64,000 nucleotides of DNA from Candidatus Aminicenantes bacterium (GTDB lineage: Bacteria; Acidobacteriota; Aminicenantia; Aminicenantales; JAFGBC01): the NCBI GenBank assembly GCA_963702005.1, contig OY969696.1:128001-192000 (forward strand), read 5' to 3'. Of the stretch, positions 39,281 through 63,680 are shown piece after piece; within the stretch, counting starts at the first letter, position 1; the number at the start of each line of letters is the position of its first letter. The position numbers were made by a program, and so were the translations under genes. The notes beneath the pieces were generated by a model. It worked only from the letters and a program-made list of their open reading frames with translations, made no database searches and was not told the DNA's origin.

Positions 39281-39472
39281 TGTGCCCAAACTGTGCCCAA
39301 ACCGCGTCTAAAATATCGAAAAACATCAAAGACTATCGAACTCCATCGAAACCTGATTCAGGAGCTAAAATGCAGATTTTCATGAAATAGCCTTATTTTC
39401 CAGGTGTGGGCTTTTTCCGTAGCCGCCTACACACGGTAGGAGTCACAGGTTCAAATCCTGTATCGCCCACCA
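39281..39472 (+). repeat. att-like site 1: arm repeats plus the 3' half of tRNA-Val(CAC)
   Basis: TGTGCCCAAA x2 at 39281; cacacggtaggagtcacaggttcaaatcctgtatcgcccacca at 39430-39472; no tRNA 5' half. Confidence 0.85.
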
Positions 39473-39659
39473 TATTCTTTTCAACCACTTGCACGATCCC
39501 GCGTCCCGGTAAAACGACGGGTGTGGCCCCTCCGTCATGATTGCCGGGATTGAATTGCGATGCGGGTGACACGCACCAGAAATCAATATTCAGCCGCCAG
39601 CGCTGCTCCCTCCTTCCCTTTTTCCCCTCTTTGTGCCTAACTTATTTCTTAAGCTGCTT

Positions 39660-39971
39660 CTATAATTTTACTTCACTAATCTGAATCGAGGGCTGGATGT
39701 CGGTGAAGTTTGGAATATCTCCCATAATCGCTTGGGCGTGCGGGCCAAAGGCAGTTTGAAATGACTCTACCGAATCGAAATATAGATGAAACATGACGAG
39801 ATAGGTTGCCCGTGATCCAGGCTCTGCGCCCCCCAGTCCCTGTTCTACGGCCACACGCTTAAACGCAGCCCCTAACTTTTGTTGGATCATGGGGATGTGC
39901 TCATTAAAATAGTACCCCATATCAAATTTTTTGCCTTCTTCATTCGGATAAAACACACTGACTTTGATCAC
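39660..39971 (-). CDS. EthD-family protein
   Basis: IKVSVFYPN...FDMGYY...HIPM...GDIPNFTDIQP; AGGAGG RBS before GTG 39971. Confidence 0.85.
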   Translation of the reverse strand: MIKVSVFYPNEEGKKFDMGYYFNEHIPMIQQKLGAAFKRVAVEQGLGGAEPGSRATYLVMFHLYFDSVESFQTAFGPHAQAIMGDIPNFTDIQPSIQISEVKL

Positions 39972-39987
39972 TTGTCTGTCCTCCTTC

Positions 39988-42900
39988 TTAAGAAAGATCC
40001 TCAAGGAGCGCCTTCGCCCCGATAAGATCGGGAGTGGCGAACCCTTCCGTGAACCAAGAATAAACCTCTTCCAGATTCTTTCTGGCCTCTTCTCGTTTTC
40101 CTTGTCTTTGCCACAAGCGGCTCAAACTCATCACGGCCCTGAGCTCCCATGACTTGGCCAACCGTAGGCGAGAGATCTCAATAGCCTGCTTGAAATACTT
40201 CTCAACTTCTTTCTCGGGCTCACCCCGCATCCGCAATAATTCACCCTTGAGCCGATAGAGCTCGGCTTCCATGTATCTCTCATCATATTTCTCGACGGCT
40301 TCAAAGGCCCAGTCCACGGCAGAAAGACCTTCCTCCAGATCTCCTGCTTTTCGGCAGGCTTCAGCGATCCTCGCCCTCAGACGCGAGAAACAGGTCATGG
40401 TCCCCGTCGCTTCCATGATCGACAAGCTTTGACGCATTTGGGCTATTCCTTCTTTGACCTTTCCCTCGAGAACGGCTCTCTCTCCGCGATAAAAATAGCC
40501 ATGCGCTGCTACGAGTATGAATCCATTTTTCTCGCAGAACGGAACAAGTTCTTCCGTATCCTTGTCGATCCGTGGAAAATTGCCGAGGAACCAATTCAGC
40601 TCGCACGCCGTGAGCAGGGCAAAAGCCAGCGAGTGCGGATGACCTAATTTTCGAGCGATGCTCACCGCTTCATCAAGTTGTCGGAGAGCTTGGTCGGGAT
40701 AGCCAATAATCCACTGCGCCCAAGACCCTAAACCCAGATTGAATACTCCGATATCATAGCCGAAGAGATAAGCCATGAAGCCGAATTTTTCCGGGTCATA
40801 GTTAGCTTTCCAATGTCTGAGGTTTTCCACGCTCTGGACAAGTTCTCCCACATTGAGCAATTCCCAGACGTCGGAATAGTGGGAGATAGCCTCGAGCATC
40901 GGGTTCTTTGACTGTTCGGCTATTGGAATCAACTGCTCTATCATTTTCAGCGATTCTCTGTACTGGGCCGTAGATACATAGTATGTGGCAAGCTGAACGA
41001 GCGCGTAAAACCGCTGAAGTGGATCACCCAATCGATCACTAAGCTCTCTGGCTCGAACGACGACTTGGCCCAATTCCGGAGCACCAAAGCCCTTCGTGGA
41101 CATGAGCGGAACGGCCAGGGCGAGCCGTAAAGCAAGCTCCTGTTGATCACGCTGAGGCGTTTCCGGAAGCTTTTGAAGAAGTCCCAGAGCTTTATGGTAG
41201 TGGGCAATCGCCGCCTCGCCGGCGGACAGCCGGACAGCTTTGTTTCCTGCTTTGTGAAAATAGTCTATGGCCTTCGGCATTATTCCCGCCTCCAGGAAGT
41301 GCCTCGCCAGTTGCACGGCAATCTCTTCAGTCTGCTCTCCGTAAAGGGCTTCTAAAATATTTCCTACTTCTTCGTGAAGTTGCGCTCTCTCCACCTTATC
41401 GAGGCTGTTATAAAGATATCTCTGGAACAGGATGTGCCGGAAAAGATACGAGGATAAGCGCTGTTTTTCGAGCTGCCGGATGCCTTTGGCAGACACCAGA
41501 TGATGCCGTTTATCCAGCTCCCTGCTTAAAAGCTTGATCAGCTCTCGGACCTCTTCTTTCTGGATCCGGGCAACCACCTCGGCCGTAAATTCTTCGCCTT
41601 CGACACTGGCGATCATTAAAATCTCCCGCAATTTTTCATTGAGCCTTTGAACACGCTCTTCAATGACGGCGTCCACGCGCGCCGGGAGCACGTTCCAATC
41701 CAAGGCTGGGCCCTCCATCCATCGGCCGTCCTTATCCCTGACCAAAGCCCCGCGTTCCTCCATGTCCTTCAGCAATTCAACCGTAAAGAGAGGATGTCCT
41801 TTGGTCTGGCTATAGAGCGTCTCCCGGAATTTAGGGCCTAGCCGGTTGGGCTCCGTATCAATATAATCATCCACGAATCGACGGGCTTCCGTTTTTCCAA
41901 CTTCGATCTCAATCTCCCCAAAATCCCGTTTGAGTTCATGAAGAATAGGCTCGAGGGGATGGCGCTCCACTCCCCGGCCCAGAGCAACCTCTGCCGGCCG
42001 CAAAGCCCCGACGATAAGGATCCGGTTCCCCTGAATCCGGCGGCCCAGATGAAAGAGCAAGCTTGCCGAGCCGGGATCGACCCACTGGAGGTCGTCTAGA
42101 ATAAGAAGCAGCGGCTTTTCTTTGGCCAGATCTTGCAGCACTCTGGTGTATTGTTCTAGCAGATTGCTCTGCTGGAGCATCAGATCCGGAGGGAGTGAGG
42201 ACTTTCGCTCCACGAGCTTCTTCAAGCCGGCCAGCCAATATGTCATTCGTGATGAGAAAGCTTCGCTTCGGGATGCCAAGGCTGCTCCGGGGATAAAAAT
42301 ATTGACCAAATCCAGGCCGTTATCCAATAAGGCTTTGACAGAAAGAGGCAGAAGATTCCACAGCCGAAGAGCGTGTTCTCTGGACATGACGCCAGCCGTC
42401 CATTTTGATTCAACGTCTCCGGTCAAAAGACTCAATATCTCGATGAACGGCAGGTAAGGATCTCCGATTCCGGCGTGGGCGTTGCATTTGCCCGAGGCGA
42501 CAATAAGTTCAGGATATGTCTCTTGGACACGCTGGGCAAACTCCTGGACTAAGGCTGTTTTCCCGCTGCCCGCTTCGCCGAGCAGGAAGACCACTTGTCC
42601 CTTGCCGCTAAGGGCGGCCTCGAGTTTCTGATACAGTTTACCCAATTCTTGTTCTCGGGCCACAAAGACCGATCGCTTTAGCGGAGCCTCTTCCACGCCC
42701 TCGCTAAGAAAAGCCGGAATCTTAGGTTTCAGGGCACCCGCTGCCGTCGGTAAACCCTCTTCCAGGCATCTAAATTCCGCCAGCAATTCCTCCGCCGTCT
42801 GGTATCTCTTCTCCCGATCCTTTTCCAGGCATTTCAGGATGACCGTGGTGAGTTCTTCAGAGAGCTGGGGATTGATCTCCTTAGGGCTCAGAGGGAGTTC

Positions 42901-44031: not shown

Positions 44032-44214
44032 TGTGCCCAAAATACGTCAGGAATATCGAAACATATCTAAAGATATCGAACTCCTTCGAAATCCTGGCGC
44101 CCCTGACAAACAAGCCTATTATAGGGGAAATTCCTTATTTTCTGCACGTTAGCTTTTTCCGCTGCTTCCTACACACGGTAGAAGTCAGAGGTTCAAATCC
44201 TCTATCGCCCACCA
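44032..44214 (+). repeat. att-like site 2: arm plus tRNA-Val 3' half
   Basis: TGTGCCCAAAA at 44032; cacacggtagaagtcagaggttcaaatcctctatcgcccacca at 44172-44214. Confidence 0.85.
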
Positions 44215-44440
44215 ACCTTATTCCGAAACGATACCATTATCTGGATTCGCCTTGATTACTCAAGGGGGATAAGGGGGGGGTAATATAGCTAAGGATAAAT
44301 CTTGGGGGAATTACGGATTCTTTTGCAGACACTGACATGATTGCTGGCCTCCCCTGATTAGTCAGGACAAGTAGGTGGGATTAATAGTTTAAATAAAAGT
44401 CTTGGAAGTGTCCCGGACATACCATGGCCGCGGATTCCCC

Positions 44441-46939
44441 CTATTTCTTTTTATCCAGGGGGAGGCCTATGCGGCGCAGCAAGGCCTGGTAGCGCGGGTC
44501 GCCGCGCAGGGGGTCCCAGAAAGGCATGCCGATATAGGCTAACTCGGGATCGTGTGCGTCGTAGGCCTTATAGAACCAGTCGATGGTCCGGTCCTTGTCG
44601 CCGGCATCGAAATAACGCAGGGCGATGCCCACGGCGCTGTGATATTCGGACTTTTTATACCGTGCCGCCAGGACGTCGGCGATGCCCCGCTGCGCGCCCT
44701 CGTATCCGCCTTCCGCGAGGCCCCGCTCGAAAGCCGCCAGTCGTTCGGGGTCACGGGCGATCCTCAGTCTCTGGTCGGCCAGCTGCTCGTCGCGCATCCC
44801 CTTGACGATGTAATATCGCTGAATAGCGGTGAAGGCGATCCCCATATCGGGCCTAATGGAGAGTGCGGTGCGGGCGGCGGCGAGGCTGTCGTCATAGCGC
44901 CCGAGGTACTGCAGGACAATCGCGTGCATGCTGTGATACAGCGCGTTGAACGGGTCCAGCTTGAGCGCCCGCTCGATGTGCCGGATCGCCTCGCCCGCGC
45001 GTCCCCTGTGCGCCAGGAAGTGGGAGTAGTACGCGTGCGCGTTGGCGCCGTTGGGATTGAGCTCGAGGGCGCGCTTCCACTCCGGCTCGGCGTCGGCCCA
45101 GTCCCATTCGGACCACGTCATGACCGAGGCCAGGGCTTCGTGCGCCTCCGCGGAGTTGTCATCAAGAGCGAGGCATTGAAGCGCCGCCGCTTTGGCCTTG
45201 GGTCCGGCCTCACTGGCCGGTACGATTGCCATTTGTTGGCGGGCCAGCCAGACCCACGTCAAACCCTCATAAGCCGGGGCGTAGGATGGGTCCTTGACGA
45301 GCGCCTGCTCGAAGCAGCTCTGGGCGGCGTCTAAATCGGCCGGCTTCATCGTCTTCCAGAGGGAAGAGCCCTTGAGATAGGCGCTATAGGCCTCAGGATT
45401 GACCGTCCGGGCAAAGGCCAGGCGGGCCTGCTCGGCCGGGAGCAGCTTGACCGCCAGGGCTTTGGCCACGCTCTGCGCCACCTGGCCCTGCACCGTAAGG
45501 ATGCCCGAGAGATCGTGCTCGTACGTGTTGGCCCAGATCTGCGTCTGGTCGGTCACATGGATCAGCTCGGCGCTGATGCGGACGCGGTTCGCCTCACGCC
45601 GGGCGCTGCCCTCCAGGACGTATTCCACCCCCAGCTCGCGGCCGACCTGGTCGATCGGCGTTTCGGCCTTCTTGTAGCGCATGACCGAAGCGAGGGCGAT
45701 GACGTTTAGGGCCGCGGGATGGAGGCGCCCGAGCTGGGTGATCAACTCCTGCGTAACGCCGTCGGAGAGGACCTCTTGCTCCGGGTCGCCGGACAAGTTC
45801 ACGAACGGCAGCACCGCCAGCCTGATCGCGGGCTCGGCGCGGCCTTTCCTTCCGAAAACCCGATCACGAAAGCCTCCGATGTTGAGGCCGAAGAGGATGA
45901 GGCTGACCGCCAAGGAGGCACGAAGCAGATAAAGTAAATTCCGTCCGAATGCTTTTCCCCTTATCCTTCGCTTGGCCTTGAGCGGCTTGAGTCCTTGGGC
46001 GACGGCCTCGAGGTCCTCCCGAAACTCCTCCATGGTCTGGTAGCGTTGAGCGGGATCCTTAGCCAAAGCTTGGAAGACAATCCGTTCAAGTCCGGGCGGA
46101 AGGCCAGGCCGTGTTTTGCCCAGCGGCTTCGGCTCCCGGTGGAGGATTGCATGGATGACCGTCTGGTCATGATCGCCCTTGAACGGCAGCTCGCCGGCGA
46201 GCATCTCATAAAGCACGACGCCGAGGGACCAGATGTCGGTCCGGCTGTCCAGATCCTCGCCTCGGGCCTGCTCCGGCGACATGTAGGCAACCGTGCCCAG
46301 CGTTGTCTGGGTTTTGGTGAGCGAACTCCCGCCCCGCAGCTTAGCCAGCCCGAAGTCCATCACCTTGGCCTGGCCCTTCTCCGTGACCATGATATTGGCG
46401 CTTTTGATGTCTCGGTGGATGATGCCCTTGACGTGGGCCGCTCCCAGTCCGGCCGCGACCTGGCTGACGATGTCAAGGGCCTCGTCCGGCTTCAGTGGCC
46501 CCCTCTTGATCCTGTCCCGAAGCGTCTCGCCTTCCACATACTCCATGGCGATGTAGGGCCGGTCCTCGCCCTCCCCGACCTCATGGATGACGCAGATGTT
46601 CGGGTGGGAGAGGGCCGCGGCCGCCTGGGCCTCGATGAGGAATCGTTCCCTGAGCTCGACGGAATCCGCCAGTTGCGGCGGAAGGAACTTCAGGGCCACA
46701 ACGCGCTTGAGCCTGATATCTTCAGCCCTAAAGACGACCCCCATCCCGCCCCGCCCGATTTCTTCAACGATCCTGTACTTTCCGGCGATGAGGCTGTCTT
46801 TCGAGATGATGGGAAGAGGGGTAACCAGGGTTTTTGTCAGGGAGGACGGCTCAGGCCCCGCCTCTCCAAGGGGCGTCGCGCAATTGCCGCAGAACCGCGA
46901 GTGTTCCTTGTTCTCGGAATGACATTTCGGGCATTCCAT
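44441..46939 (-). CDS. Zn-ribbon Ser/Thr protein kinase with TolB-like and TPR domains
   Basis: CPKC..CGNC, IGRGGMG, HRDIKSAN, DFG, LAVLPFVNLSGDPEQE, TPRs. Confidence 0.9.
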   Translation of the reverse strand: MECPKCHSENKEHSRFCGNCATPLGEAGPEPSSLTKTLVTPLPIISKDSLIAGKYRIVEEIGRGGMGVVFRAEDIRLKRVVALKFLPPQLADSVELRERFLIEAQAAAALSHPNICVIHEVGEGEDRPYIAMEYVEGETLRDRIKRGPLKPDEALDIVSQVAAGLGAAHVKGIIHRDIKSANIMVTEKGQAKVMDFGLAKLRGGSSLTKTQTTLGTVAYMSPEQARGEDLDSRTDIWSLGVVLYEMLAGELPFKGDHDQTVIHAILHREPKPLGKTRPGLPPGLERIVFQALAKDPAQRYQTMEEFREDLEAVAQGLKPLKAKRRIRGKAFGRNLLYLLRASLAVSLILFGLNIGGFRDRVFGRKGRAEPAIRLAVLPFVNLSGDPEQEVLSDGVTQELITQLGRLHPAALNVIALASVMRYKKAETPIDQVGRELGVEYVLEGSARREANRVRISAELIHVTDQTQIWANTYEHDLSGILTVQGQVAQSVAKALAVKLLPAEQARLAFARTVNPEAYSAYLKGSSLWKTMKPADLDAAQSCFEQALVKDPSYAPAYEGLTWVWLARQQMAIVPASEAGPKAKAAALQCLALDDNSAEAHEALASVMTWSEWDWADAEPEWKRALELNPNGANAHAYYSHFLAHRGRAGEAIRHIERALKLDPFNALYHSMHAIVLQYLGRYDDSLAAARTALSIRPDMGIAFTAIQRYYIVKGMRDEQLADQRLRIARDPERLAAFERGLAEGGYEGAQRGIADVLAARYKKSEYHSAVGIALRYFDAGDKDRTIDWFYKAYDAHDPELAYIGMPFWDPLRGDPRYQALLRRIGLPLDKKK

Positions 46940-47016
46940 GACACCCTCACATTGCCGATGCCCGAATCGTATCACCGCCGGAGCGGCCGGTCAATCGAGA
47001 AACACGTTCTTTCGGC

Positions 47017-47209
47017 TGTACCCAAATCGTGCCCAAAAAATGTCAGAAATATCGAAGACTATCGAAAGATATCAAAATCCATCGAAATCCTGGAGCCCAT
47101 AAAACAGTCCTATTACAGAGGGAATCCCTTTATTATCTGCGCTTTAGGTTTTTCCACCGCTTCCTACACACGGTAGAAGTCAGAGGCTCAAATCTTCTAT
47201 CGCCCACCA
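47017..47209 (+). repeat. att-like site 3: arm plus tRNA-Val 3' half with two substitutions
   Basis: tgtacccaaatcgtgcccaaaa at 47017; cacacggtagaagtcagaggctcaaatcttctatcgcccacca at 47167-47209. Confidence 0.85.
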
Positions 47210-47381
47210 TCTTGTTATCAATAACTCGCCTGATTCCTTTATCGGGCAAAATCGCGGTCGTGCCTAAATCCGAACCAGCGAGCCGTTCTGCTTCTCCTTT
47301 CTGCCGTTAGCGTCCGACTCTGGGGAGAGGAAGTTCCCGTAATTCCTCATGTCTTTGGCAACGCCGCCTTGTCACGGTTAG

Positions 47382-48848: not shown

Positions 48849-49040
48849 AATTCTACCTCCTTTCATTGCATCTCAGATGGATCAAAGAGGAATTCATGGT
48901 TAGCGGATTAAGTTCCTATAACAATTATCACCACGGGAAATGGGATGTCAATTGAATGGAAAAGCAGATCTCCCGCTCCAAGTGACCATGTGTCACAGGA
49001 TATACAGATTTTGCTTAGAATCGCTTCTAGATTGACAAGT

Positions 49041-54912: not shown

Positions 54913-55778
54913 TCCATATGTTCTCCTATCCGTTCGTTCAAATGGCCCTTTTAGCGGCTTTGATCCTCGCGGGGATCCATTCCTATCTGGGATTCCATGT
55001 CGTCAGCCGCGGCGTCATCTTCGTTGATATTTCGATGGCCCAGGCTGCGGCTTTCGGCTCCGTCTTGGGGCTCACCTTGGGATGGGCCCAGCATTCTTGG
55101 CCCACCTATTTCGTGAGCTTGTTCTTTACGCTGGCCGCAGCGGCCCTCATCTCCGTATCGCGTATTCGCGATAACCGAATCCCCCAGGAAGCTTTTATCG
55201 GCATCATATACGCCGGCTTTGCGACGTTAGTCATGTTGCTTTTGGCGAAGCACGCCGGCGGATCGGAAGAGCTCGAAGAAGTTCTGGCCGGATCCCTCTT
55301 GACGATCCAAATCCACGATCTGATATCCACCGCCCTTCTTTACGCCGGGATCGGAGCATTTCATTGGCTTTTGAGAGCACGCTTTTTCCGTATTTCTCAA
55401 GACCGAGCAAGTGTCGTCCAAGACGGCTGGAAGGTCGGTTGGTGGGATTTCCTTTTTTACGCATCGTTTGGGCTCGTTGTGACCTCATCGGTGCACGTAG
55501 CAGGAGTCATGCTTGTCTTCTCATTTTTGATTATTCCGCCCGTCATAGCGCTTCTGTTCACCCGGAAACAGAGCTTGAGGCTCGTGCTCGGTTGGTCGGT
55601 CGCATTTGCGGGAAGCGTCGCCGGGATCATGATCTCTGTCGGAATGAACCTTCCGACCGGCCCATCGATCGTCGCGTCCCTGATCGTCTTCCTGCTGATT
55701 GCCGTGGCGATCAGGCGGTTGATGACTTTGTTGGCGACGTCACGCAAGAAGATCAGCAAATCCGCTGGAGCGAAATAA
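54909..55778 (+). CDS. ZnuB-like ABC-3 metal permease
   Basis: Hydrophobic; YLGFHVVSRGVIFVDISMAQ, GVMLVFSFLIIP, LPTGP. Confidence 0.9.
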   Translation: MIHMFSYPFVQMALLAALILAGIHSYLGFHVVSRGVIFVDISMAQAAAFGSVLGLTLGWAQHSWPTYFVSLFFTLAAAALISVSRIRDNRIPQEAFIGIIYAGFATLVMLLLAKHAGGSEELEEVLAGSLLTIQIHDLISTALLYAGIGAFHWLLRARFFRISQDRASVVQDGWKVGWWDFLFYASFGLVVTSSVHVAGVMLVFSFLIIPPVIALLFTRKQSLRLVLGWSVAFAGSVAGIMISVGMNLPTGPSIVASLIVFLLIAVAIRRLMTLLATSRKKISKSAGAK

Positions 55779-55881
55779 TGTTGCCGCCCTTGGCGACGAA
55801 GTTGCTGGCGAATGTGTGCCTGAGATCGTGAAGCCGGTGACCTACAGAGACAGGCTGGTGGACTGATATAGAAAAATATTT

Positions 55882-57934
55882 CTACATGAAAATCCGGAGA
55901 ATCCTCATGAAAATCCCGCCAACCAGGATCGCGAAAAATATTTTGAACACCGTGATGAATCCCGCCTTCTTCCACCCGGTTTCCTTCACCAGCGCCGCTA
56001 TGGTCGCCGCGCACGGGATGTAGAGCATCGTCACGAGCGTGAACACCAGCATCTGGACGGGCGTCATGACGGCGGCAAGGTTGGCCGCACCGAAAAGCGA
56101 GGTCAGCATTATGAGCGTGAGCTCTTTCCTGATTATTCCGAACACGAAGGCTATCCCCGCGACCGCGGGAAGACCGAGCCACAGCACCGTGACCGGATAA
56201 AGCGCGCCCGACACCGGCGCCAGCATCCCCAATGCCTTCATCAGGTTGATCACGACTGCGCTCGCTATTATGATGGGGAAAGCGACGAACACGAAATCCT
56301 TCATCTTGTACCAGGCCTCCCTGACGGTCGTCCTAAACTGCGGCACGCGCATGTCCGGTATCTCCATGATGAGGCCTACCGACTCGCCGGGAAGGACTCT
56401 GAAGGCTATTTTTCCCAGGGCGAATATTATGAGCAGGTCGATGGCGTAAAGCCCGATGGCCCACAACAGGCTCACGTATTTTGCGACGAGCCCGAGCACG
56501 ACGGCGGTTACGGCCGCGCACGGTATCATCGAAGTCACGAAAATGGCCAGCATGCGCTCCCTTTTCGTTTCCATCACCCTGCACCCGAGGCAGGCGGGGA
56601 CGTTGCATCCGAATCCCATGATCATCGGTATGAAGGCCTTGCCGTGCAGGCCTATCTTGTGCATGGCGCTGTCCATGAGGAAGGCCATCCTGGCCAGGTA
56701 TCCCGAATCCTCGAGCAGCCCGAGGATGAGGTAGAACGGGAGTATGTACGGCACGACCACCGTCACCGCGGCGACCATGCCCTCCATGAATCCCGTCAGA
56801 GTGCCGGCAACCACGCCGCTGCCCGCAATGGAACGGACGGCATTGACGAAGTCAAGGAGATATCCTTCCATGAGGCCGGACAGGAAATTGCCGAAGGAAA
56901 AAAGCGAAATGAAAACAAGGACTATGATTCCCGCCATGATTGGATAGCCCCATATCCTGTGAAGCAGCAGGTCCGCGAACCTCGACGATACGGGCCTGTC
57001 GGGGACGGTCGCCTTCTGGACCCTGCGGGTTATGTTGCCGACGGCCGCGTATTTTTCGCAGGCCATCGCGGTCGGGCATGAATGGTCATGGATGGTTTCT
57101 ATATTTCTCGATATCTTCCTTGCCGCGGCCACGGTCTCCTTGTCCATGCTTCCGGCGACTTCGGCGTCCTCCTCGAGGAGCTTTATGGCCTTCCATCTCG
57201 CGGGAAGGCCCTTCAAAGACGCGTTCTTTTTCACCATTTTCTCGATCTTGCCTATGCTATTTTCTATTTCCTTGCCGTAGACGATTTTCACGGGCTTCCT
57301 TTTATTCAGGCAGACCCTAATCGTCTCTTCCACCGCCTCATAGATCCCGGTCCCCCTAACCGCGACGGCGGGAATCACCGGAATGCCGAGCGCCTTCGAG
57401 AAGCTCCTCGTAATCTATAAAGATGCCCTTCTTCTCCGCCATGTCCGTCTGGTTGAGGACGACGACCATGGGAATTTCGAACTCCATCAGCTGGAGCGTG
57501 AGAAAAAGATTTCTTTCAAAAACGGAGGCGTCTACGACGTTTATCAGCACGTCCGGCTTCTCTTTGGCTATGTACTCCCTCGTCACTTCCTCCTCGATGG
57601 AATACGTGGAAATGGAATATATCCCCGGCAGGTCTATGACGTCGATTTCGTAACCCTTGAAATGGAACGTTCCCTCCGCCCTCTCGACGGTCTTGCCGGG
57701 CCAGTTCCCGATGTGCTGGTGAAGCTTGGTGAGGTAGTTGAATATGACGGACTTGCCGACGTTCGCGTTACCGGCCAGGGCGAATCTAAGCTTTTTAGAA
57801 ATCCCGGCCTCGCTTGGCCCGCCGGGACCCCCGGATTTGGCGGAAGCGCTGAATACGCCCGGCTTTTCGCAACCTGCAAAGTAGGAAGCCATCCGACTTG
57901 CACTGTCAGTCTTTTTCGTCCGAATCTTGGTCAT
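55882..57934 (-). pseudogene. feoB: Ferrous iron transporter FeoB split by a single-base frameshift near 57400
   Basis: G-domain [20 protein letters not shown] in 57356-57934; membrane part GFGCNVP in 55882-57378; removing one base restores [13 protein letters not shown]. Confidence 0.85.
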
Positions 57935-58593
57935 CCGTCCACCTTGAGGTATATCTTTTGTGCCATGCCCCTTCCTATCGCCAGAGAAGAACCCCTCACC
58001 CGTATCTCCACGGGTCCCCCGAGCGGCGCGGTCCTGGACACGCTGATTTCCGCCCCCGGCGTGAGGCCCATGTCCTCGAGCCTCCTTTTTGCCTGCTGGC
58101 CGGAATCAATCGAAACGACCGCGCCCTGCTGGCCGGGCTTCATGTCCGCCAGCGAGACCATTCCCTTCCTTTTAACGCGCGTCTCGCCGATTTCCTTCTT
58201 GATGGCATTCTCGAGGTCCTTCGATACCGTATGCTCCAGCCTGCACGCTTCGTTGTGGACTTTGTTCTTCGAGATACCGATCGCGATGAGGAATCTTTCC
58301 ATGAGGCGGTGCTTCCTGAGGACGGTCTTGCCGATCGCTTTTCCCTTTGCCGTGAGAGCCGCGCCTCCGTAAGGCTCGTACCTCAGGTACCCTTTATTGT
58401 CGAGCTTCCTGAGCATTTCGGACACGCTCGGCGCGGAAATCCCCAGCTCGCCGGCTATCGCGGTCGTCGTGGGCCTTCTCCCTTTCTCCGTTATCCTGTA
58501 TATAGTCTCGAGATACTCCTCGACGTTCTCTGATTCCGTGGTATACCCGGTCCCAGATTCTCTTGGATTTTTCCCGACTGATTTCGTGCTCAT
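57931..58593 (-). CDS. DtxR/MntR-family metal-dependent regulator with a FeoA domain
   Basis: [50 protein letters not shown]. Confidence 0.9.
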
Positions 58594-58603
58594 ACGATCT
58601 TAT

Positions 58604-58617
58604 TTAGGCATGCCTAA
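58604..58617. promoter_or_regulatory. DtxR-type operator palindrome
   Basis: TTAGGCATGCCTAA immediately upstream of the regulator start. Confidence 0.75.
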
Positions 58618-58655
58618 GTATTTAAGTTAAGAAGATATATTATAATTGAGGTTGT

Positions 58656-58769
58656 GTCAACCTTTCGACTCCCCGGCACGAATGCCGGGGCTTGTTCAGG
58701 GTTAACCCTGAGCCTCGCCTCTCGTCCCCGCCTTGAAAGGCGGGGCTTGGCGTCGGCGAGCGGGTCAAT
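58656..58769. mobile_element. Non-autonomous palindromic element (IS200/IS605-end or REP-like)
   Basis: GTCAA at both ends; hairpins CCCCGGCACGAATGCCGGGG-CTTG, TCAGGGTTAACCCTGA, CCCCGCCTTGAAAGGCGGGG-CTTG. Confidence 0.6.
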
Positions 58770-58789
58770 GACCTGCCCTTGAAGTTGAT

Positions 58790-59120
58790 CGCTAAAAGGG
58801 CCGCGAGCGTCGTCCTGACCCAAGCCGGGCTGACGAACATCATGGCCTTGGTCGAGCAGGGGGCGAATTATCCGCCAGCGCATTCTGACCTGGATCATCA
58901 ATAAGATCAGCCGGACGATCCTGAAGGCGGCTTTCGTGGCCATCGCCTTCGTGGCGACCGGCAAGTTCGTCGTCTCCGCCTTTGCGATGCTGCTGCTCGT
59001 CTTCATGACGGACTTCGCGAAGATCTCCCTGGCCACCGACCACGTTCGACCGTCCGGAAAACCGAAGACGAGGAACATCGGGGGTTACATCACCGTGTCC
59101 GTGGCGCTGGGCGTTGCGAT
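58790..59120 (+). pseudogene. Internal fragment of a P-type (H+-type) ATPase
   Basis: AASVVLTQAGLTNIMALVEQGR...WIINKISRT...LLVFMTDFAKISLATDHVRPS. Confidence 0.7.
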
Positions 59121-59381
59121 CGAAGGGAGGCTTGTTGAATCACATTAAATGTAACCCAAACTCTGGTCCCGCGAGCTGCTCCCCTCGCGGGCGTTCTTCC
59201 TCCAATGCATCGCCCCACTGTTTATTCACAAGTCCATCCATCTTCTCGCGCCAAGTCATCGCGACATTCACGAGCGGACGGATTCAAACCGACATCGAGC
59301 CTGAGCTCCGAGAGATTTCGAGACCCTCCCTTCTCGAAAAATAGCCTCTATCTCCTTTTGGGGACACAAAGAATTTTATGG

Positions 59382-59411
59382 TTGACATTGTTATGAGCAT
59401 ATGCTTATAAT
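59382..59411 (+). promoter_or_regulatory. Sigma70-type promoter with an overlapping palindromic operator
   Basis: TTGACA(59382)-18 bp-TATAAT(59406); near-palindrome TTATGAGCATATGCTTATAA at 59391-59410. Confidence 0.75.
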
Positions 59412-59417
59412 GTCATC

Positions 59418-59717
59418 GTGGCCAGGCCGAAAAAGTGCAGATGTATTAATTGCACCCCCAATGCTTTTTATTTTAAGCCGAGGGGGATTCCCATGTTCCG
59501 ACTTGAGGAGATATCCCTGAGCCTCGATGAACTCGAGGCGATAAGGCTCGCCGACTACGAAGGGCGTTACCACGAAGAAGCCGCGACCGGGATGAAGGTG
59601 TCGCGCGCAACCTTCGGAAGGATATTGAACAAGGCCCGCAACAAGGTCGCTGAAGCGATCATCTTTGGTAAAGCCTTACGCATAGAGACAAACCCAGACC
59701 AAGGAGGCAACAGATGA
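59418..59717 (+). CDS. DUF134-family DNA-binding protein
   Basis: MARPKKCR, YFKPRGIP, DELEAIRLAD, MKVSRATF. Confidence 0.9.
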   Translation: MARPKKCRCINCTPNAFYFKPRGIPMFRLEEISLSLDELEAIRLADYEGRYHEEAATGMKVSRATFGRILNKARNKVAEAIIFGKALRIETNPDQGGNR

Positions 59718-60097
59718 AAGTATGTTTCGCAGTTCAAAAAGATGACGGCGTTGAAAGTGCGGTTTATGACCATTTCGGTTCTGCTCCCGCATTTATCGTC
59801 GTGGATACCGAGCTTGACAAGACAGTAACGGTCAATAATCGTGATCTGAACCACGTCCACGGGGCCTGCAATCCGATCCAGGCCCTAGGCGGACTCAGCG
59901 TCGATGCGTTGGTCGTCGGGGGCATAGGGGCTGGAGCCATCACGAAGCTCAAGGCGCAAGGGATCAAAGTTTACCGCTCTGCGGCAGCGACGGTGAAACA
60001 GAACCTGGACCTGCTGAAAGAGAATAAGCTGCCCGAACTCTCAGTGCGGAACGCTTGCGGCGGACATCAAGAAAGCCAGGGGGGCTGCTCACGCTAA
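59714..60097 (+). CDS. NifB/NifX-family (FeMo-cofactor-binding-like) protein
   Basis: HFGSAPAF, HGACNP, VGGIGAGA. Confidence 0.85.
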   Translation: MKVCFAVQKDDGVESAVYDHFGSAPAFIVVDTELDKTVTVNNRDLNHVHGACNPIQALGGLSVDALVVGGIGAGAITKLKAQGIKVYRSAAATVKQNLDLLKENKLPELSVRNACGGHQESQGGCSR

Positions 60098-60126
60098 CAC
60101 CCCGACAGAAACGCGGAGGAGAACCT

Positions 60127-60360
60127 ATGCCGATCTACGAATATCGTTGTGCAAAGTGCGGTGAAGTCAGCGAATTTCTCATCTTGGGCAAGCAGAAACA
60201 ACTCAACTGTAAACAGTGCGGAAGCGAAGAGTTGATCAAGCTCGTTTCTGCCTACAATACGGCCGGCAGGCAAGCGCCTGGCTCCGGCGGCTCCAGCTCT
60301 GGAGGCTGTTGCGGCTCACCTGATTCATGCGGAACGCCGGGAAGCTGCTGTTCAGAATAG
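60127..60360 (+). CDS. FmdB-family zinc-ribbon protein
   Basis: MPIYEYRCAKCG...CKQCGS; Cys/Gly-rich tail. Confidence 0.85.
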   Translation: MPIYEYRCAKCGEVSEFLILGKQKQLNCKQCGSEELIKLVSAYNTAGRQAPGSGGSSSGGCCGSPDSCGTPGSCCSE

Positions 60361-60402
60361 CGAGACAATAAGATAAATACAGGGAGGCCATGGGACAGGG
60401 AG

Positions 60403-60560
60403 ACAATATGATATTTATGGTTTTTTTGCGCCAGATGGAGGGGCCCCACCTTGATGGTTACCATCCAATCCCCCTTTTGCTGACAACAGCCGGCATCTTG
60501 GGCGTCGAGAAAGCGACATGACTTTCCAGAATTCCGGGGACGCCCCGAGGGATTTTAAGC
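60403..60560. repeat. About 150-bp intergenic repeat, copy 2
   Basis: Diverged match to 38402-38560. Confidence 0.8.
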
Positions 60561-60719
60561 CCCTTGCATTATATTCTTGTTTCCCCCCCATTTTAATTAT
60601 TTCAGGAATGATGAGCTTTTAGACGGCATGTCCCGCCAAGGAGGGGAAAGCCTTCGCATATTGCCGCTAGATCGACGCTCTAGGATGCCCCAGAATCGAC
60701 AATCTTGAGCCGATCCATA

Positions 60720-61547
60720 TCAACGGAGATGGACGATGTTCGCCGTGATCAGCCGCGCGTGGTTCGAACACAGGAACGCGATCACCTCGGCGACCTCTTC
60801 CGGACGGACGATATGGATGAGATCGCGCCGGCGTTTCACGTCGTCTCGAACCTCATCGTTCACCCAGCCTGTGTCGGTCACCGGCGGATAGACAATGTTC
60901 GCCGTGATGCCGAACTCCGCCAGCTCGAACGCCGCGGCCATCGTGTAGTTCTCGAGCGCGGCCTTGGCGGCTCCATATGAGACTTCGTTCGGGAAACCGA
61001 GCGGGCCACCCGAGGTCAGGCCGACGATGCGGCCCCACCTGGCGCCCCGGGCCACGTGGCGCCGCGCCAGTTCCGACATCATGAGCGCGCCGCCGCGAGC
61101 GTCGACGGAGAACAGCTGGTCGTAGGTCGCCGCGGACACCGGTTGGACGTGCACCCCGTAATGCGTCTCGCCGGCAGCGGCGAAGCTGTCGGCCGCCCAG
61201 CCGACACTCGCATTATTCACGAGGATGTCGACCGGACCCAGCTCCTTCTCGGCGAAATCGAACAGCCGCGCCGGCGTTTCCGCGTCCCTCAGATCGGCTT
61301 CCATCGCGACCGCGCGCCCGCCACACGCGCGGATCGCGGCCAGCACTTCCTCGGCTCCTTTCCCGCGGTTGGCGCGATACGGCGCCGGGAAGTCGAACGG
61401 ATCGATCGTGCGCAGGTAGGAGACGAGCACCGACGCGCCGCACCCGGCGAGCGCCCGTGCCGTCGCGGCGCCTATCCCGTGGTTGGCGCCGGTGATCAGG
61501 GCGACGTGCCCCTTCAGGTCATAAGGCAGCGCCGCGACATCAGGCAT
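60720..61547 (-). CDS. Short-chain dehydrogenase/reductase
   Basis: ITGANHGIG, LVNNAS, YGAAK. Confidence 0.9.
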   Translation of the reverse strand: MPDVAALPYDLKGHVALITGANHGIGAATARALAGCGASVLVSYLRTIDPFDFPAPYRANRGKGAEEVLAAIRACGGRAVAMEADLRDAETPARLFDFAEKELGPVDILVNNASVGWAADSFAAAGETHYGVHVQPVSAATYDQLFSVDARGGALMMSELARRHVARGARWGRIVGLTSGGPLGFPNEVSYGAAKAALENYTMAAAFELAEFGITANIVYPPVTDTGWVNDEVRDDVKRRRDLIHIVRPEEVAEVIAFLCSNHARLITANIVHLR

Positions 61548-61556
61548 GAACGCCTC

Positions 61557-61808
61557 CTACGAGCCTGCCGGCTGCTGGTACAGGCCGATCACGTTTCTGC
61601 CGGGGTCCCGGAACCTCGCGGTGATTTCAGGATCGTCCGCGCCGATCGGCTGCACTACCTCTCCGTCGTTCGCGAGGACGGCGTCGATGGTCGCCGCGAC
61701 GCTATCGACCATGATGTAGACGAGCAGTCCCGGTTCTCCCGACGCCTTCCGGCCGGCAATCCACGTCCCGCTGACTTCACCGGCGCCATCGTCGAACGCC
61801 AGGTGTCC
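61557..61808 (-). pseudogene. 5'-truncated VOC/glyoxalase-family gene
   Basis: AFDDGAGEVSGTW...LVYIMVDSV...ARFRDPGRNVIGLYQ; N-terminal half missing. Confidence 0.65.
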
Positions 61809-61919
61809 ATGAGGATAAGAATTTGCTTTTCGGCGGCGTCCGCTCGCGCAACTGATTTCGAATCGATTTCCCATCCCGCCTCCATAAATAAGCATAATTT
61901 CCGGCTCGGGGGATGTCAA

Positions 61920-63589
61920 CCGGGATTTCCCATATGACCGATCAAAGCCATCTGATTCCTTCTCGCCAGATTGGATTCTCCTATTATTGAGTAACATTTT
62001 CAAGAACTCCAGTCCCGGACCGATCCTTTTTGCCTCCACGGGCCACGATATCGACATTTCGCCCATGCAATCACCTTTTCTCTCGACTTGAAGACGGGCC
62101 TCTCCACGAGATTCGCAGACTCCGCGACCTTCAGTGTGCCGTCCATCTTAACTGGTTTCAGGCAACAACCGCAGCTGGGCGATCTTGTCCAGGATCAACG
62201 CAAACAAGCTCCGCGGAATCGCCACTTCGGCCATCTGAAAAGTAACATATTTCGCGTGCCGTATGACTTTGGCCCCTATCTTGATCATTTTTTCCCGCAA
62301 GGTGGTCAGAGTCCACTGGCTGATCCTGCTGGGCAGGGCCAGTTTGCGCAGGAAATTGCCAACATTGTATGCCAGGGCGAACAGTTGCAGCCGCACCTCG
62401 TTGTCCCGGAAGTCATGACACGACAGCCGCGTCCACGTCAGCGCGATCTTCCCCTCCTTGATCCACTGCTCGGCGGTCCCGCGCTTGTTGTAAAACCGCA
62501 CCACGTTTTTGGCTCGCCGGTTCAGGTTGGTCACGATGAAGCCGACGCGCGGGAACAGCTCGTCATGATGCCATTCGACCTTGGCCACCACTCGCCGGGG
62601 CCGCCCCCAACTCTTGGCCTGATACATGAAGCTGTGATAGAAAACCTTGGGCTTGTAGGACGGCCGGCCCACGGGCCGGGTCGTCAGGTGCTCGATCTCC
62701 CGTTGCAGCACGTCGTTGATTGGCAGGCGGACGGCGTAAAGAAACCTCTCGCCTTCCAGATATTCATAGATTTCGGGCTGGGCGAACGCCGCATCACCCC
62801 GGAAGTAGCGATTCAGCAAACACTCCCGATAACGGGCAACCACCGGCTCCAGCACCGCCCGCCAGTTGTCGGCGCTGTGCACGTTGCCCTCGCGCAGCAT
62901 CGCCCGCTCCAGATCGCCAAACTGATTGAAACAAAACAGCGGATGATATCAGGTGCACTCGAAATGACCGTTCCAGGCCGACCCTTCCTGCCGGCCGTGG
63001 GTCTGACTTTCCGAACTGTCCATGTCCAGGATCAGTTTCTTTGTCTTTGAACGACGATTGGCTTCCGATATCCACCTTCCACACAAATCGGCCAACGCCT
63101 GGACATTTTCATCGCTGGTCAGAATCTCCGTCTCGAAACGGCTCATCTGGCTGGTCGAGGCCGCCAGGTGTTCCTTGGCGCGGCCCCCTACGATCTGACG
63201 CAGGGCCGGGTCGACTCGCAGCCGCTCGGCGTCATTGGTATCCTCGTATCCGGCCAACCGCCCATATACCGCCTGCCGAAGCAATGCCGTCATCGTGTGC
63301 TGGGTATTCTGGCCCGTGCGCGGATCCTGAAGAACTTTCTCGGCCAAAACCGTCAATCCCATCACTTCATCCATCTCTCTGAAAAGCAGCAGACCGCCAT
63401 CACTGGTTATTTTTGCGCCCTGGAATTCCAGCTTCACACTGGGGTCAAACTGGACCCGCAAGACCTCTTTTTTGCTCTCACCCATCAGGTCTCTCCGTTT
63501 TTCTGCTTCAATATCGCTATCAGCCTTTATTCATCAGCCTTTTCAGCTAATATTATAACAATTTTTGATTTCTATTTGGGAAATATGGG
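61920..63589 (-). mobile_element. IS1380-family element (about 1.67 kb)
   Basis: Imperfect terminal IRs CCGGGATTTCCCATATG / CCCATATTTCCCAAATAG around the transposase. Confidence 0.75.
62148..63485 (-). pseudogene. IS1380 transposase interrupted by one in-frame TGA at 62949-62951
   Basis: ITSDGGLLL, GYEDTND, LDMDSS, GHFECT*YHPL, RGDAAF, YNKRGTAEQWIKEGK. Confidence 0.85.
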
Positions 63590-63602
63590 TTTAGATGAAA
63601 GC

Positions 63603-63680
63603 TGTGCCCAAACTGTGCCCAAAAATATCGAAGACTATCGAAAAATATCTAAATCCATCGAAAGCCGAAAGCCCTAAAAA
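63603..63680 (+). repeat. att-like arm region 5 without a tRNA core
   Basis: tgtgcccaaactgtgcccaaaaatatcgaagactatcgaaaaatatctaaatccatcgaaa, closely matching arms 1-4. Confidence 0.8.

Follow-up and report, generated by a model that had tools for sequence, protein, structure and literature searches.

The analysed window, a 64,000-nucleotide stretch, contained the motif TGTGCCCAAA 12 times with at most one mismatch, compared to a mean of 3.96 in shuffled sequences, none of which (0 of 100) reached 12. Reading and alignment revealed four complete units of ~190 bp, of which U4 is shorter, and a truncated fifth, U5 (Table 1). Each complete unit contained TGTGCCCAAA arms, ATCGAA-type repeats (typically four, spaced ~11 bp apart, and fewer in U4), a TTATTTTC box resembling CCTTATTTT, and a 43-nt 3' half of tRNA-Val(CAC) whose first bases are the anticodon CAC. 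The original prediction had described these four units, and motif counts, alignment and a profile search all agreed with it; the arm repeats it gave to each unit were found as doublets in U1, U3 and U4, but U2 contains only one (at 44032). When the 4.3-Mb genome was searched with a profile of 17 units, U1 to U4 scored E = 1e-45 to 1e-55. No complete units beyond these four were found in the genome by this search, and truncated unit relics lay at genome positions 198,265 and 206,418. U5 broke off at profile position 133 and had no tRNA half. Column conservation was 80-90% in the arms, repeats and box, as opposed to 40-50% in the spacers.

Table 1. Features of the array (window coordinates).
Feature	Position	Strand	Basis or details
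Arm doublets TGTGCCCAAA	39281/39292, 47017/47028, 49041/49052, 63603/63614		
U1, attR-type unit	39281..39472	+	profile E 1e-51
U1 arm doublet	39281-39301		
U1 ATCGAA-type repeats (four)	~39313-39352		
U1 CCTTATTTT box	~39391		
U1 tRNA-Val 3' half	39430-39472		
P' (integrase-side) arm remnant, cassette 1 left end	39473..39526	+	tblastn, integrase residues 355-381, E 1e-7
EthD, cassette 1	39660-40004	-	Pfam
Pkinase+AAA_16+TPR, cassette 1	39988-43767	-	Pfam; 1259 aa
U2, attR-type unit	44032..44214	+	tRNA half 44172-44214, CAGAGG/CCTCTA variant
Cassette 2 left-end leader, hairpin type	44215..44300	+	
Zinc-ribbon+Pkinase+TPR kinase, cassette 2	44441..46975	-	Pfam; 844-aa ORF
U3, attR-type unit	47017..47209	+	arms 47017-47037; tRNA half 47167-47209; E 4e-55
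P' arm remnant, cassette 3 left end	47210..47276	+	tblastn, integrase residues 350-381, E 2.5e-6
ADA2-like adenosine deaminase (A_deaminase_N + A_deaminase), cassette 3	47382..48866	-	Pfam
U4, attR-type unit	49041..49203	+	arms; tRNA half 49161-49203, ending CCCATCC
Fifth segment, 14.4 kb	49204..63602	both	unknown 468-aa ORF, peptidase C69, ZnuA/ABC-3, split FeoB, DtxR-FeoA, FeMo-cofactor-like protein, SDR, split DDE transposase
U5	63603..63699	+	arm doublet + four ATCGAA repeats; profile E 1.5e-15

The unit-to-unit segments have one or two genes each, as predicted, but measured 4550, 2776 and 1812 bp instead of 4.7, 3.0 and 2.0 kb. Pfam agreed with the proposed cargo (EthD plus kinase-AAA-TPR; kinase-TPR; ADA2-like deaminase), all on the minus strand and none an integrase; the single-strand pattern holds for cassettes 1 to 3, however, and not for the fifth segment. 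Promoter-like sequences were found in cassette 2 (TTGACC-N17-TACGAT, 46994-46966), where homologue alignments of the kinase ORF begin at residue 13, and in cassette 3 (TTGACA-N16-GATAAT, 48951-48924). Metagenome contig L092 had a 93% amino acid match to the final 72 residues of the deaminase, with other neighbours there. At the left ends, the cassette 1 remnant was a homologue of the stretch that separates the intact tRNA from the integrase, with the break inside the first arm site, and the cassette 3 remnant carried one degenerate arm site (CGTGCCTAAA). The leader of cassette 2 consisted of ATTCCGAAACG, an imperfect inverted repeat CGCCTTGATTACTCAAGGGG (44248-44267) and a G run. Since the left ends were degenerate in cassettes 1 and 3 and had no recognisable arm site in cassettes 2 and 4, lambda-like excision of single islets may be impossible.

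ARAGORN detected no intact tRNA in the window; an intact tRNA-Val(CAC) was found at genome 89457-89531, 38.5 kb to the left, where the original prediction had expected both it and an integrase. An exact arm doublet follows at genome 89581/89593, and a 381-aa Phage_integrase ORF reads through this TGTGCCCAAA doublet into the tRNA. An excisionase-family ORF (HTH_17, 73 aa) abuts the integrase and is 67% identical to the ORF beside the G173 integrase. The model of the integrase (mean pLDDT 74.8) exhibited an N-terminal three-strand sheet plus helix and aligned with full-length lambda Int (1z1b, 1z1g) over 354-360 columns; the protein is a lambda-type tyrosine integrase. U1 forms the right end of a 78-kb integrase-bearing element. 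These data support the view that the units serve as att sites for a tyrosine integrase specific to tRNA-Val(CAC).

In bacteriophage lambda, the core is flanked by arm repeats on either side and by accessory repeats on the P side only, with int by P' and xis upstream. The present system has the same layout: arm-type repeats on both core sides, tandem accessory repeats only on the P side, an int gene that adjoins P' and is transcribed towards the core, and xis upstream of int. The TGTGCCCAAA arm sites on both core sides are most likely integrase-binding sites, and the four ATCGAA repeats, confined to the P side, most likely serve the excisionase or an accessory factor. We infer this pairing of proteins with repeats, as well as current mobility, from the sequence. 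Unlike in lambda, integration here targets the anticodon loop of a tRNA, the int reading frame continues across P' into the tRNA half, and binding is predicted.

In G001, a genome of the same genus as the one carrying the array (G000), the tRNA is followed ~125 nt on by the DNA found at 216,190 in G000. The site is empty in G001; in G000, ~127 kb has accreted at tRNA-Val. The tRNA halves of U1, U2, U3 and U4 differed from the resident half at 0, 3, 5 and 5 of 43 positions, so that divergence rises with distance from the tRNA and is followed by the truncated relics. The T-stem read CAGAGG/CCTCTA in the G001 tRNA and in U2 to U4, and CACAGG/CCTGTA in the G000 tRNA and U1. This pattern is what would be expected if a composite of the integrase element and cassette 1 had integrated once from a foreign source, and the tRNA-half variants indicate a recent foreign arrival. 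The region is probably the distal part of a ~127-kb composite island formed by tandem accretion at tRNA-Val(CAC), with CIME-like islets.

Such an island would have grown as elements integrated one after another, site-specifically, in the anticodon-loop region of tRNA-Val(CAC), with the lambda-type integrase and its excisionase-family partner as drivers. At each integration, the element's own 3' half would restore the tRNA, and the earlier 3' half would be pushed to the right, behind the P arm of the element, to give one unit. An islet would then comprise a short leader at the left end, cargo of one or two genes opposite to the tRNA strand with their own promoter, and a P arm; several islets have evidently lost xis-int from an integrase-bearing ancestor. 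Cis-mobilisation could account for the spread and reshuffling of the islets, in that recombination between the attL of an integrase-bearing neighbour and any distal unit would take islets along; recombination between repeated cores would also reshuffle them.

Other families of the order have equivalent arrays at this locus; across the order, the P arm is present in 31 of 246 genomes and a full-length cognate integrase in 3. The arm-plus-tRNA unit recurs in relatives, with cassette content and order that differ. Contigs of 17 genomes held 36 bounded segments (median 3045 bp between att sites), two with a full integrase, five with catalytic-domain stubs and 29 with none; the relatives are mostly fragmented MAGs in which repeats may be collapsed, and one contig occurred in two bins (G149 and G239, 99.9% identical). 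Cargo kinases common to different families were 75-88% identical, whereas flanking genes were 54-63% identical. The G023 array, with syntenic flank genes in that same range, contains cassette kinases 86% (the orthologue of the cassette 1 kinase) and 76% identical to those of G000, in reversed order. KinA cassettes (76-82% identical) lie beside the tRNA in G023 and G149 and behind another cassette in G143 and G024, and their leader subtype tracks the kinase subclade. The congeners G221 and G024 have one common cassette (95.5% nucleotide identity), followed by different neighbours.

These comparisons bear on the idea that unequal crossing-over between tRNA halves multiplied a kinase gene together with its upstream unit, and that the copies diverged in place, with no site-specific insertion of separate elements. 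Neighbouring G149 cassettes indeed contain a 1.2-kb repeat of 77.6% identity (kinase 5' part, promoter and unit), P arms are often most alike inside one array (81% in G149, 80% in G022), and paralogous kinases occur in 14 of the 36 segments. However, the other 22 hold unrelated cargo, e.g. deaminase, peptidases, MacB-like permeases, a methyltransferase and a LuxR regulator. Kinases of one array are 47-60% identical and have closer relatives in other families, and the kinase tree is largely devoid of clades made of one array's cassettes. Furthermore, several leader types coexist inside one array, and the foreign tRNA-half variants do not fit; we regard tandem duplication as a very unlikely origin of the array. 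The within-array likeness of P arms, together with the G023 P arm right of the type-C kinase (58% identical to its best matches, with that of G000 not among the three closest), suggests that local duplication or gene conversion acted as well as accretion. G177 has three kinases directly after one another, with no units separating them, which counts against the accretion reading.

Integrase stubs of graded lengths were observed in the relatives, and stubs or P' tails occupy the left end of 8 of the 36 segments. Together with the P' remnants of 54-67 nt after U1 and U3, the truncated integrases indicate that at least some cassettes are eroded derivatives; judging from their sequences, several derive from integrase-bearing elements. 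The predicted minimal cassettes are compact, integrase-less and common to families above flank-gene identity, but, partly against the original prediction, not all of them arose as such. A stronger version holds that all are inert fossils of eroded larger integrase-bearing islands, now fixed, with genome differences arising from differential loss and occasional homologous recombination. The graded stubs, the truncated U5 and genomic relics, and a solo site (L057) in which the arm repeat is the fusion point of P' and P would fit, as would the rarity of the integrase: 28 of the 31 P-arm genomes have no full-length cognate integrase, so many arrays may be inert. However, G000 keeps an intact xis-int beside the tRNA and tRNA-half variants that point to recent foreign arrival, the predicted binding-site columns are selectively conserved, array order and position vary, and cassettes are more alike between families than flank genes. 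We consider complete inertness improbable.

The original prediction had the cassettes mobilised in trans. They would then be designed minimal mobile units (promoter, gene and att) that form single circles and insert at tRNA-Val with Int/Xis provided in trans by a rare helper element, a true integron analogue on lambda-type att sites. Consistent with this, the segments are uniform in architecture and compact: 21 of the 36 are at most 3.3 kb long, many with a single gene 50-70 nt from both att borders, and metagenome contigs added another 16 intervals, of 1.3-4.5 kb. Conservation extends to the left ends: among 88 non-redundant flanks to the right of tRNA halves, 25 had a C-rich 7-9-bp hairpin (20 of 1760 shuffles), which started 21-33 nt past the tRNA end in 24 of the 25. 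One KinA cassette without an integrase recurs, with homologous joining of leader and gene, at position 1 in G149 and internally in G024_C15, and arrays outnumber the integrase tenfold. However, these comparative data are also accounted for by cis-mobilisation, most cassettes have no P'-side arm sites, and the left-end stubs and tails argue against designed units. The predicted circular junctions were not seen: Logan contigs (short ones only) contained no circles, core-to-core junctions or excision products, and terminal overlaps were found in 0 of 80 metagenome loci. Mobilisation in trans is for this reason something we infer as a possibility for individual islets, and we consider the reading as a whole unlikely compared to accretion with cis-mobilisation.

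Integrons (IntI, attI, attC) recombine folded attC sites and keep the integrase on a fixed platform. The present array is likewise one-sided, with short uniformly oriented cassettes, a single primary site, cassettes that outnumber recombinase genes and similar recombination sites within an array. However, its integrase is lambda-type with an arm-binding domain and lies inside the first element, the att sites are double-stranded with a tRNA half, the cassettes bear their own promoter-like sequences, and no attC-like recombination hairpin was found in them. The proposed integron-like gene capture is thus an analogy, not membership, and the likeness is one of function only.

Tandem accretion with integrase-less att-flanked islets has already been described for the CIMEs of the ICESt1 family (reportedly by Pavlovic 2004 and Bellanger 2011) and for Dehalococcoides ssrA islands. 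CIMEs have lost integration and transfer genes but kept attL and attR; in Streptococcus thermophilus they are described as stacked by site-specific integration at the target-gene end, and composite excision with a functional neighbour as possible (PMC5704250). Att-flanked remnants are stacked in the same manner here, but most islets contain a single gene (median 3.0 kb), an array can have as many as 5-8 att sites with a ~150-nt P arm apiece, no conjugation genes were seen, and the host is an uncultured lineage in which islet mobility is predicted. The Dehalococcoides account describes many tandem islands up to 100 kb downstream of one small-RNA gene, with 3'-end direct repeats, fifteen of them without an integration module and proposed to be cis-mobilisable (PMC3146451). 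Cargo comes from one expanded family in both cases, rdhA there and Ser/Thr kinases here. The recombinase there is CcrB-like, of the serine type, with a 20 bp repeat in the tmRNA T-loop and a six-gene integration module (PMC3146451), whereas here a tyrosine integrase plus Xis is paired with a 43-47-nt anticodon-loop repeat and long arm regions.

Islander, as described, recognises an intact tDNA accompanied by a directly oriented, displaced 3' fragment, and 2083 of its 3919 islands belong to the class whose crossover is centred on the anticodon; it accepts tandems only if every member has its own integrase, and lists 125 of two or more and 4 of three or more (PMC4383910). The intact tDNA, displaced direct 3' fragments and anticodon-region crossover of the present locus conform to this pattern, but the rules as described would merge or miss arrays of integrase-less members like this one. 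Since relatives stack their islets likewise, the array would represent island growth of a known kind, in a form that is unusually compact and resembles cassettes.

We aligned the five repeated sites of the array (U1 to U5) and found a common plan, in which an arm doublet is followed by four ATCGAA-type repeats about 11 bp apart, a variable stretch and a TTATTTTC box. The arm motif TGTGCCCAAA (one mismatch or fewer) occurs 12 times in the window against a shuffle mean of 3.96, and none of 100 shuffles reached 12. U1 to U4 are 190-bp direct repeats, each ending in 43 nt copied from the 3' half of a tRNA, with the anticodon CAC as the first bases, and U5 ends after the ATCGAA repeats. The inter-unit spans were 4550, 2776 and 1812 bp. 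With a profile made from 17 units of several genomes, U1 to U4 were recovered at E = 1e-45 to 1e-55; no further complete unit was found in the 4.31-Mb genome (G000), and no hidden one between U1 and the integrase. The arm, repeat and box columns of the unit alignment were 80 to 90% conserved, compared to 40 to 50% for the spacers, and this selective conservation leads us to read them as putative binding sites. The arm repeats were kept in 15 of the 17 aligned units. The motif excess over shuffles, the alignment of the five sites and the profile scores together confirm that the unit architecture in the original prediction is real. A shorter form, in which the arm doublet is joined directly to the tRNA 3' part without ATCGAA repeats, was observed past the window and at loci L108, L126, L132, L142 and L052; it is known from G000, the related genome G024 and several metagenome contigs.

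Coordinates of the array features and their surroundings in G000 (positions in the window, G000:C1:128001-192000, unless marked as genome)
Feature	Position	Strand	Remark
U1	39281-39472		arm doublet from 39281
P' remnant after U1	39473-39526
U2	44032-44214		lone arm copy at 44032
U3	47017-47209		arm doublet from 47017
P' remnant after U3	47210-47276
U4	49041-49203		arm doublet from 49041
U5	63603-63699		arm doublet from 63603
69-codon open stretch	43770-43976	minus	between kinase start and U2
Candidate promoter	46994-46966
Candidate promoter	48951-48924
Split FeoB, two overlapping ORFs	55882-57378, 57356-57934	minus	FeoB_N GTPase 192 aa; Gate/FeoB_C 498 aa
DDE_Tnp_1_4 transposase, two ORFs	62148-62900, 62949-63485	minus	just left of U5
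Rejected integrase match	55592-55833
Match to G010 array DNA	59274-60406		1.1 kb, around FeMo-cofactor-like gene
Right part of 78-kb element	6026-39224		G+C down to 34-40%
Tyrosine recombinase	1247-1864	plus	205 aa
Tyrosine recombinase	19934-21172	minus	412 aa
Intact tRNA-Val(CAC)	genome 89457-89531		ARAGORN
Exact arm doublet by the tRNA	genome 89581/89593
PF00589 match	genome 89638-90069		102 bits, within 381-aa ORF
RemA-like (PF04025) ORF	genome 90926-91222 (L059:2926-3222)	minus	98 aa, just past xis
Second tRNA-Val(CAC) call	genome 3717067-3717160		unusually long, 94 nt (ARAGORN)
T-arm/acceptor fragment	genome 198,265		relic past the window
Arm site joined to final 17 nt of tRNA	genome 206,418		relic past the window
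Short unit form	genome 206,418-206,470 (window 78418-78470)

The intact tRNA-Val(CAC) and the integrase that had been expected to the left of the window were both found there. The integrase is a 381-aa tyrosine integrase ORF on the strand opposite the tRNA, and its frame crosses the arm doublet and stops within the tRNA 3' half. Given the direct 43-nt copies in U1 to U4, the intact tRNA stands at one end and the 3' repeats at the other. The integrase adjoining the intact tRNA belongs to the first element, and the cassettes have none. Directly upstream of it lies a 73-aa ORF of the excisionase type (HTH_17, E 1e-13), 67% identical to its counterpart at the equivalent place in G173, another genome of the order. 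A conserved gene on the left side of the tRNA was considered as a fixed recombinase of an insertion platform and rejected; it is not a recombinase and gave a weak zinc-ribbon match only. The exact arm doublet was also found in metagenome loci (L086, L134, L158 and others), where it stands at the 3' ends of genes for integrases only 20 to 28% identical to this one; it may be common to a wider integrase group or partly reflect coding constraint (LGTVLGT in the tRNA-Val integrase).

The integrase was modelled with AlphaFold from an alignment of 5 sequences, with a mean pLDDT of 74.8. The N-terminus of the model showed three strands (residues 3-7, 10-17 and 20-27) and a helix (30-45) with pLDDT >80, which at the level of the model form a putative arm-binding domain. 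No arm-binding Pfam family was listed for the integrase at E ≤ 0.001. In Foldseek, full-length lambda integrase was aligned with the model over 354 to 360 columns, and the last 59 residues, overlapping the P' (integrase-side) arm and the tRNA, were of low confidence. Arm-type repeats flank the core on both sides, as the P' doublet and as the P arms of U1, U3, U4 and U5. The arm sites on both sides, the accessory repeats on the P side only and the xis-int pair beside P' correspond to the layout of a lambda-type system. As in heterobivalent systems of this type, a predicted arm-binding domain, two-sided arm repeats and a putative excisionase gene are present. From the layout, we infer the assignment of the integrase and the HTH_17 protein to the arms and the ATCGAA repeats.

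In G001, a genome of the same genus, the syntenic tRNA on contig C163 is followed after ~125 nt by DNA matching G000 position 216,190. The two genomes were 85% identical in nucleotides on either side of this junction, indicating an empty site in G001. The extra DNA in G000 amounts to ~126.6 kb, much of it with low G+C. The island shares the features of tDNA islands formed by anticodon-loop tyrosine integrases, namely the tRNA with its 3' repeat, an adjoining integrase and an empty site in a relative. The tRNA halves of U1, U2, U3 and U4 differed from the resident tRNA at 0, 3, 5 and 5 of 43 positions, respectively. Such a gradient would arise if new arrivals always entered at the intact tRNA and supplied their own 3' half. 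The T-stem reads CAGAGG/CCTCTA in the G001 tRNA and in U2 to U4, and the compensatory pair CACAGG/CCTGTA is found in the G000 tRNA and U1. A single integration, from a donor carrying the other tRNA allele, of a composite of the 78-kb integrase element and cassette 1 would account for this. The cassette 1 kinase is 86% identical to a kinase of G023, a genome of another family whose tRNA carries the CACAGG/CCTGTA allele.

The fifth segment (14.4 kb) holds a mixture of transport and metabolic genes on both strands, among them a split FeoB that is probably a frameshift or a pseudogene. An integrase match in this segment (tblastn E 0.01) was rejected after BLASTP with the overlapping 241-aa ORF was negative. 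A stretch of it was 89.9% identical in nucleotides to array DNA in an 11.3-kb segment of G010, which belongs to a different family. The right part of the 78-kb element has the appearance of a defence-type mosaic, with a HerA/DUF87 ATPase, a NERD protein, a UvrD-like helicase, an NYN nuclease-like protein and an HATPase_c_3 protein adjoining a C-5 cytosine methylase. The two further tyrosine recombinases within the 78-kb element are unrelated to the tRNA-Val integrase (22 to 40% identity over short stretches), and other elements are probably nested inside it. A backbone common to this element and the 21.4-kb element of G173 was considered and rejected, since besides the integrase they have just one weak protein match (30% identity over ~700 aa). 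Genes for a primase, a TerL-like ATPase and DUF5131 are found in the G173 element.

Read from the tRNA side, a cassette consists of a tRNA half, a short leader, cargo on the opposite strand and then the P arm. Cassettes 1 to 3 were bounded by tRNA halves, and no integrase was found in them by Pfam or tblastn. Two leader types were recognized among 88 non-redundant flanks. The first (9 flanks) is the integrase-side arm, ATCAAC.ACTTGC plus an arm site. The second (25 flanks) is a C-rich hairpin of 7 to 9 bp, found in 20 of 1760 shuffles, and it begins 21 to 33 nt past the tRNA end in 24 of the 25. The hairpin is not a genome-wide repeat, occurring at just 2 places in G000. We read it as a putative terminator, which would insulate the tRNA, once restored, and the cassette gene convergent to it. 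The kinase cassettes showed a conserved TTGACC-N17-TAATAT upstream, ~25 nt from the arm doublet; the candidate promoters in the window are sequence matches, with a scan total not above shuffles. In U2, the place of the first arm copy is taken by an open stretch of 69 codons with a possible resemblance to the C-terminus of an IS3-type transposase. A PDB sequence search gave one match for this peptide (E 0.66), leaving the transposase assignment unsupported, and the ORF overlapping it in another frame had no Pfam match.

We searched for the unit in relatives. The query matched 38 of 41 genomes (G000 and 40 relatives), mostly in the tRNA part alone, and complete units in arrays were found in G023, G028, G022, G033, G024, G008, G009 and G010. 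Among 246 genomes of the order (G000 counted), the P arm was present in 31, from 7 of the 9 families including that of G000. A full-length cognate integrase was found in only three of them, G000, G173 and G072 (59 to 63% identity over residues 1-381), and the remaining full-length matches were 27 to 40% identical. We delimited 36 segments between two att cores on contigs of 17 genomes, counting once a contig common to two bins (G149 and G239, 99.9% identity). Their median length was 3045 bp, with 26 segments of 5 kb or less and 21 of 3.3 kb or less. Two contained a full integrase (78 kb in G000 and 21.4 kb in G173), five a truncated gene and three a P' tail only, while 26 to 28 had no trace. 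Metagenome contigs were also scanned for the exact doublet, which gave at least 119 stretches, and 80 loci were analysed. Those listed included 24 complete units and 16 more core-to-core intervals of 1.3 to 4.5 kb, and no full-length cognate integrase. As anticipated, the unit occurs in relatives, and cassette order and content differ among the arrays. Locus L057 is syntenic with the left flank of G000, with four genes 58 to 72% identical in amino acids and the tRNA-adjoining gene 35%. Contigs C2 and C28 of G021 (L077 and L078) share 6.8 kb at 100% identity, with the tRNA-Val and an integrase stub of 171 aa inside it; the second copy is either an artefact of assembly or a genuine duplication.

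The predicted cargo genes were recovered by Pfam, all on the minus strand: EthD and a Pkinase+AAA_16+TPR protein in cassette 1, a Pkinase+TPR protein in cassette 2, and an adenosine deaminase with an ADA2-type N-terminal domain in cassette 3. At least one full-length Ser/Thr kinase was present in 14 of the 36 segments, mostly of the zinc-ribbon+Pkinase+TPR type (~830 aa). G000 has 27 kinase-domain loci, 3 of them within the island. In the other 22 segments, 30 ORFs scanned for domains included peptidases (M29, S9 and S41), alpha/beta hydrolases, glyoxalase, MacB-like permeases, a methyltransferase, BNR proteins, an amidohydrolase-TPR protein, a lactonase and a sigma factor. A 2.5-kb cassette of G173 carries a LuxR-type regulator. 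PADLOC gave no evidence of a defence role: its kinase matches (PD-T4-6, mad6 and related models) cover the generic kinase domain only, and the match of the deaminase to CARF_ADA is confined to the deaminase part of that model. We see in the cargo accessory signalling and enzyme genes with no established defence role.

Several comparisons speak for mobility of the cassettes. The syntenic flank genes of G000 and G023 were 54 to 63% identical, and the cassette kinases they have in common were 86% and 76% identical, in reversed order. Cassettes with one kinase type (KinA, 76 to 82% identical) adjoin the intact tRNA in G023 and G149 and stand behind another cassette in G143 and in G024 (contig C15). 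The KinA leader subtype tracks the kinase subclade, and an integrase-less leader-gene junction is common to G149 and G024 contig C15. In the congeners G221 and G024, one cassette was 95.5% identical in nucleotides and was followed by differing neighbours. The deaminase cassette recurs beside other neighbours in a metagenome contig (93% amino acid identity, last 72 residues). Single-cassette mobilisation in trans seems unlikely to us. Other findings speak against independent, designed cassettes. Many integrase stubs, from five genera or more, start at about residue 265-293, with unrelated DNA past the break; P' tails directly follow U1 and U3, and in a solo site P' is joined to P at the arm repeat. 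These stubs, tails and fusion point to deletion in elements that once bore an integrase as the origin of at least some cassettes. Local duplication or gene conversion also shapes the arrays, as indicated by P arms that are often closest to others of their own array, a 1.2-kb block in G149 (kinase 5' part and unit) repeated at 77.6% identity, and three kinases of G177 that stand back to back without units.

Terminal overlaps of 20 to 200 nt, the sign of circular elements, were found in none of the 80 metagenome loci listed. We also searched Logan assembled contigs of 24 sequencing runs, the best of which share 0.43 and 0.41 of words. Compared with window 38000-52000, four of the 24 runs gave short pieces that were mostly conserved kinase parts of other organisms. 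One assembled record joins 47104 to 49168 with 14 other letters in between.

The array was compared with known systems. The attC sites of integrons are folded imperfect inverted repeats, whereas the units are direct repeats with a tRNA half, and the leader hairpin of some cassettes lies outside the repeated core. An integron platform carries IntI; here, in contrast, the integrase is carried by the first mobile element, and 243 of 246 genomes lack it. Furthermore, integron cassettes are promoterless, as opposed to the candidate own promoters seen in these cassettes. The array thus lacks all three defining features tested, and its likeness to integrons is one of function only. Tandem accretion and cis-mobilisable elements (CIMEs) are known from a few Firmicutes, Dehalococcoides and some pathogens, usually as large decayed islands. 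According to a review (PMC5704250), CIMEs have lost integration and transfer genes and kept attL and attR, and they arise by integration, decay and accretion, with CIME-ICE tandems being co-transferred. Cassettes 1 to 3 are likewise flanked by att sites and have no recombination or transfer genes. Indirect signs that they may be mobilised along with a functional neighbour are the tRNA-half variants and the shared cassettes. In Dehalococcoides (PMC3146451), numerous islands stand in tandem downstream of ssrA, with a 20-bp repeat bounding each of them, and 15 without an integration module were proposed to be cis-mobilisable. Islander (PMC4383910) counts tandem arrays only if every member has its own integrase, and gives 4 arrays of three or more. 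No description of this array at tRNA-Val, or of comparable ones in Aminicenantes, came up in full-text searches of the literature outside subscription journals.

Tandem accretion, with CIME-like islets moving mainly in cis, is probably the best explanation of these data. The original prediction stands as regards the att sites at tRNA-Val, their recurrence and the sharing of cassettes; its integron membership does not, and its independent, designed cassettes seem unlikely given the stubs and P' tails. A cassette system proper, with integrase-less promoter-gene-att modules of 1.5 to 5 kb that a rare phage-like Int/Xis helper excises as circles and inserts in trans at tRNA-Val(CAC), is doubtful. 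If true, the integron principle would have been invented a second time, independently, and mobilisation in trans would build and reshuffle arrays that diversify the repertoires of Ser/Thr kinases and secreted enzymes. On the preferred reading of accretion, the array represents a known process in a form that is unusually compact and also widespread.

With an integrase, a putative excisionase and five naturally occurring att variants, the system is simple and lends itself to asking what number of arm sites lets an element without an integrase be moved in cis or in trans. Island finders that require one integrase per island would overlook such arrays. Here the logic of accretion yields a near-cassette array, in which many single-gene islets with putative own promoters and conserved ends are gathered at one tRNA gene. 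Such arrays recur in at least 7 families of a lineage of sediments and wetlands that is uncultured, and their cargo is enriched in Ser/Thr kinases with TPR domains. These data suggest that tRNA-linked att arrays could be general stores of accessory genes.
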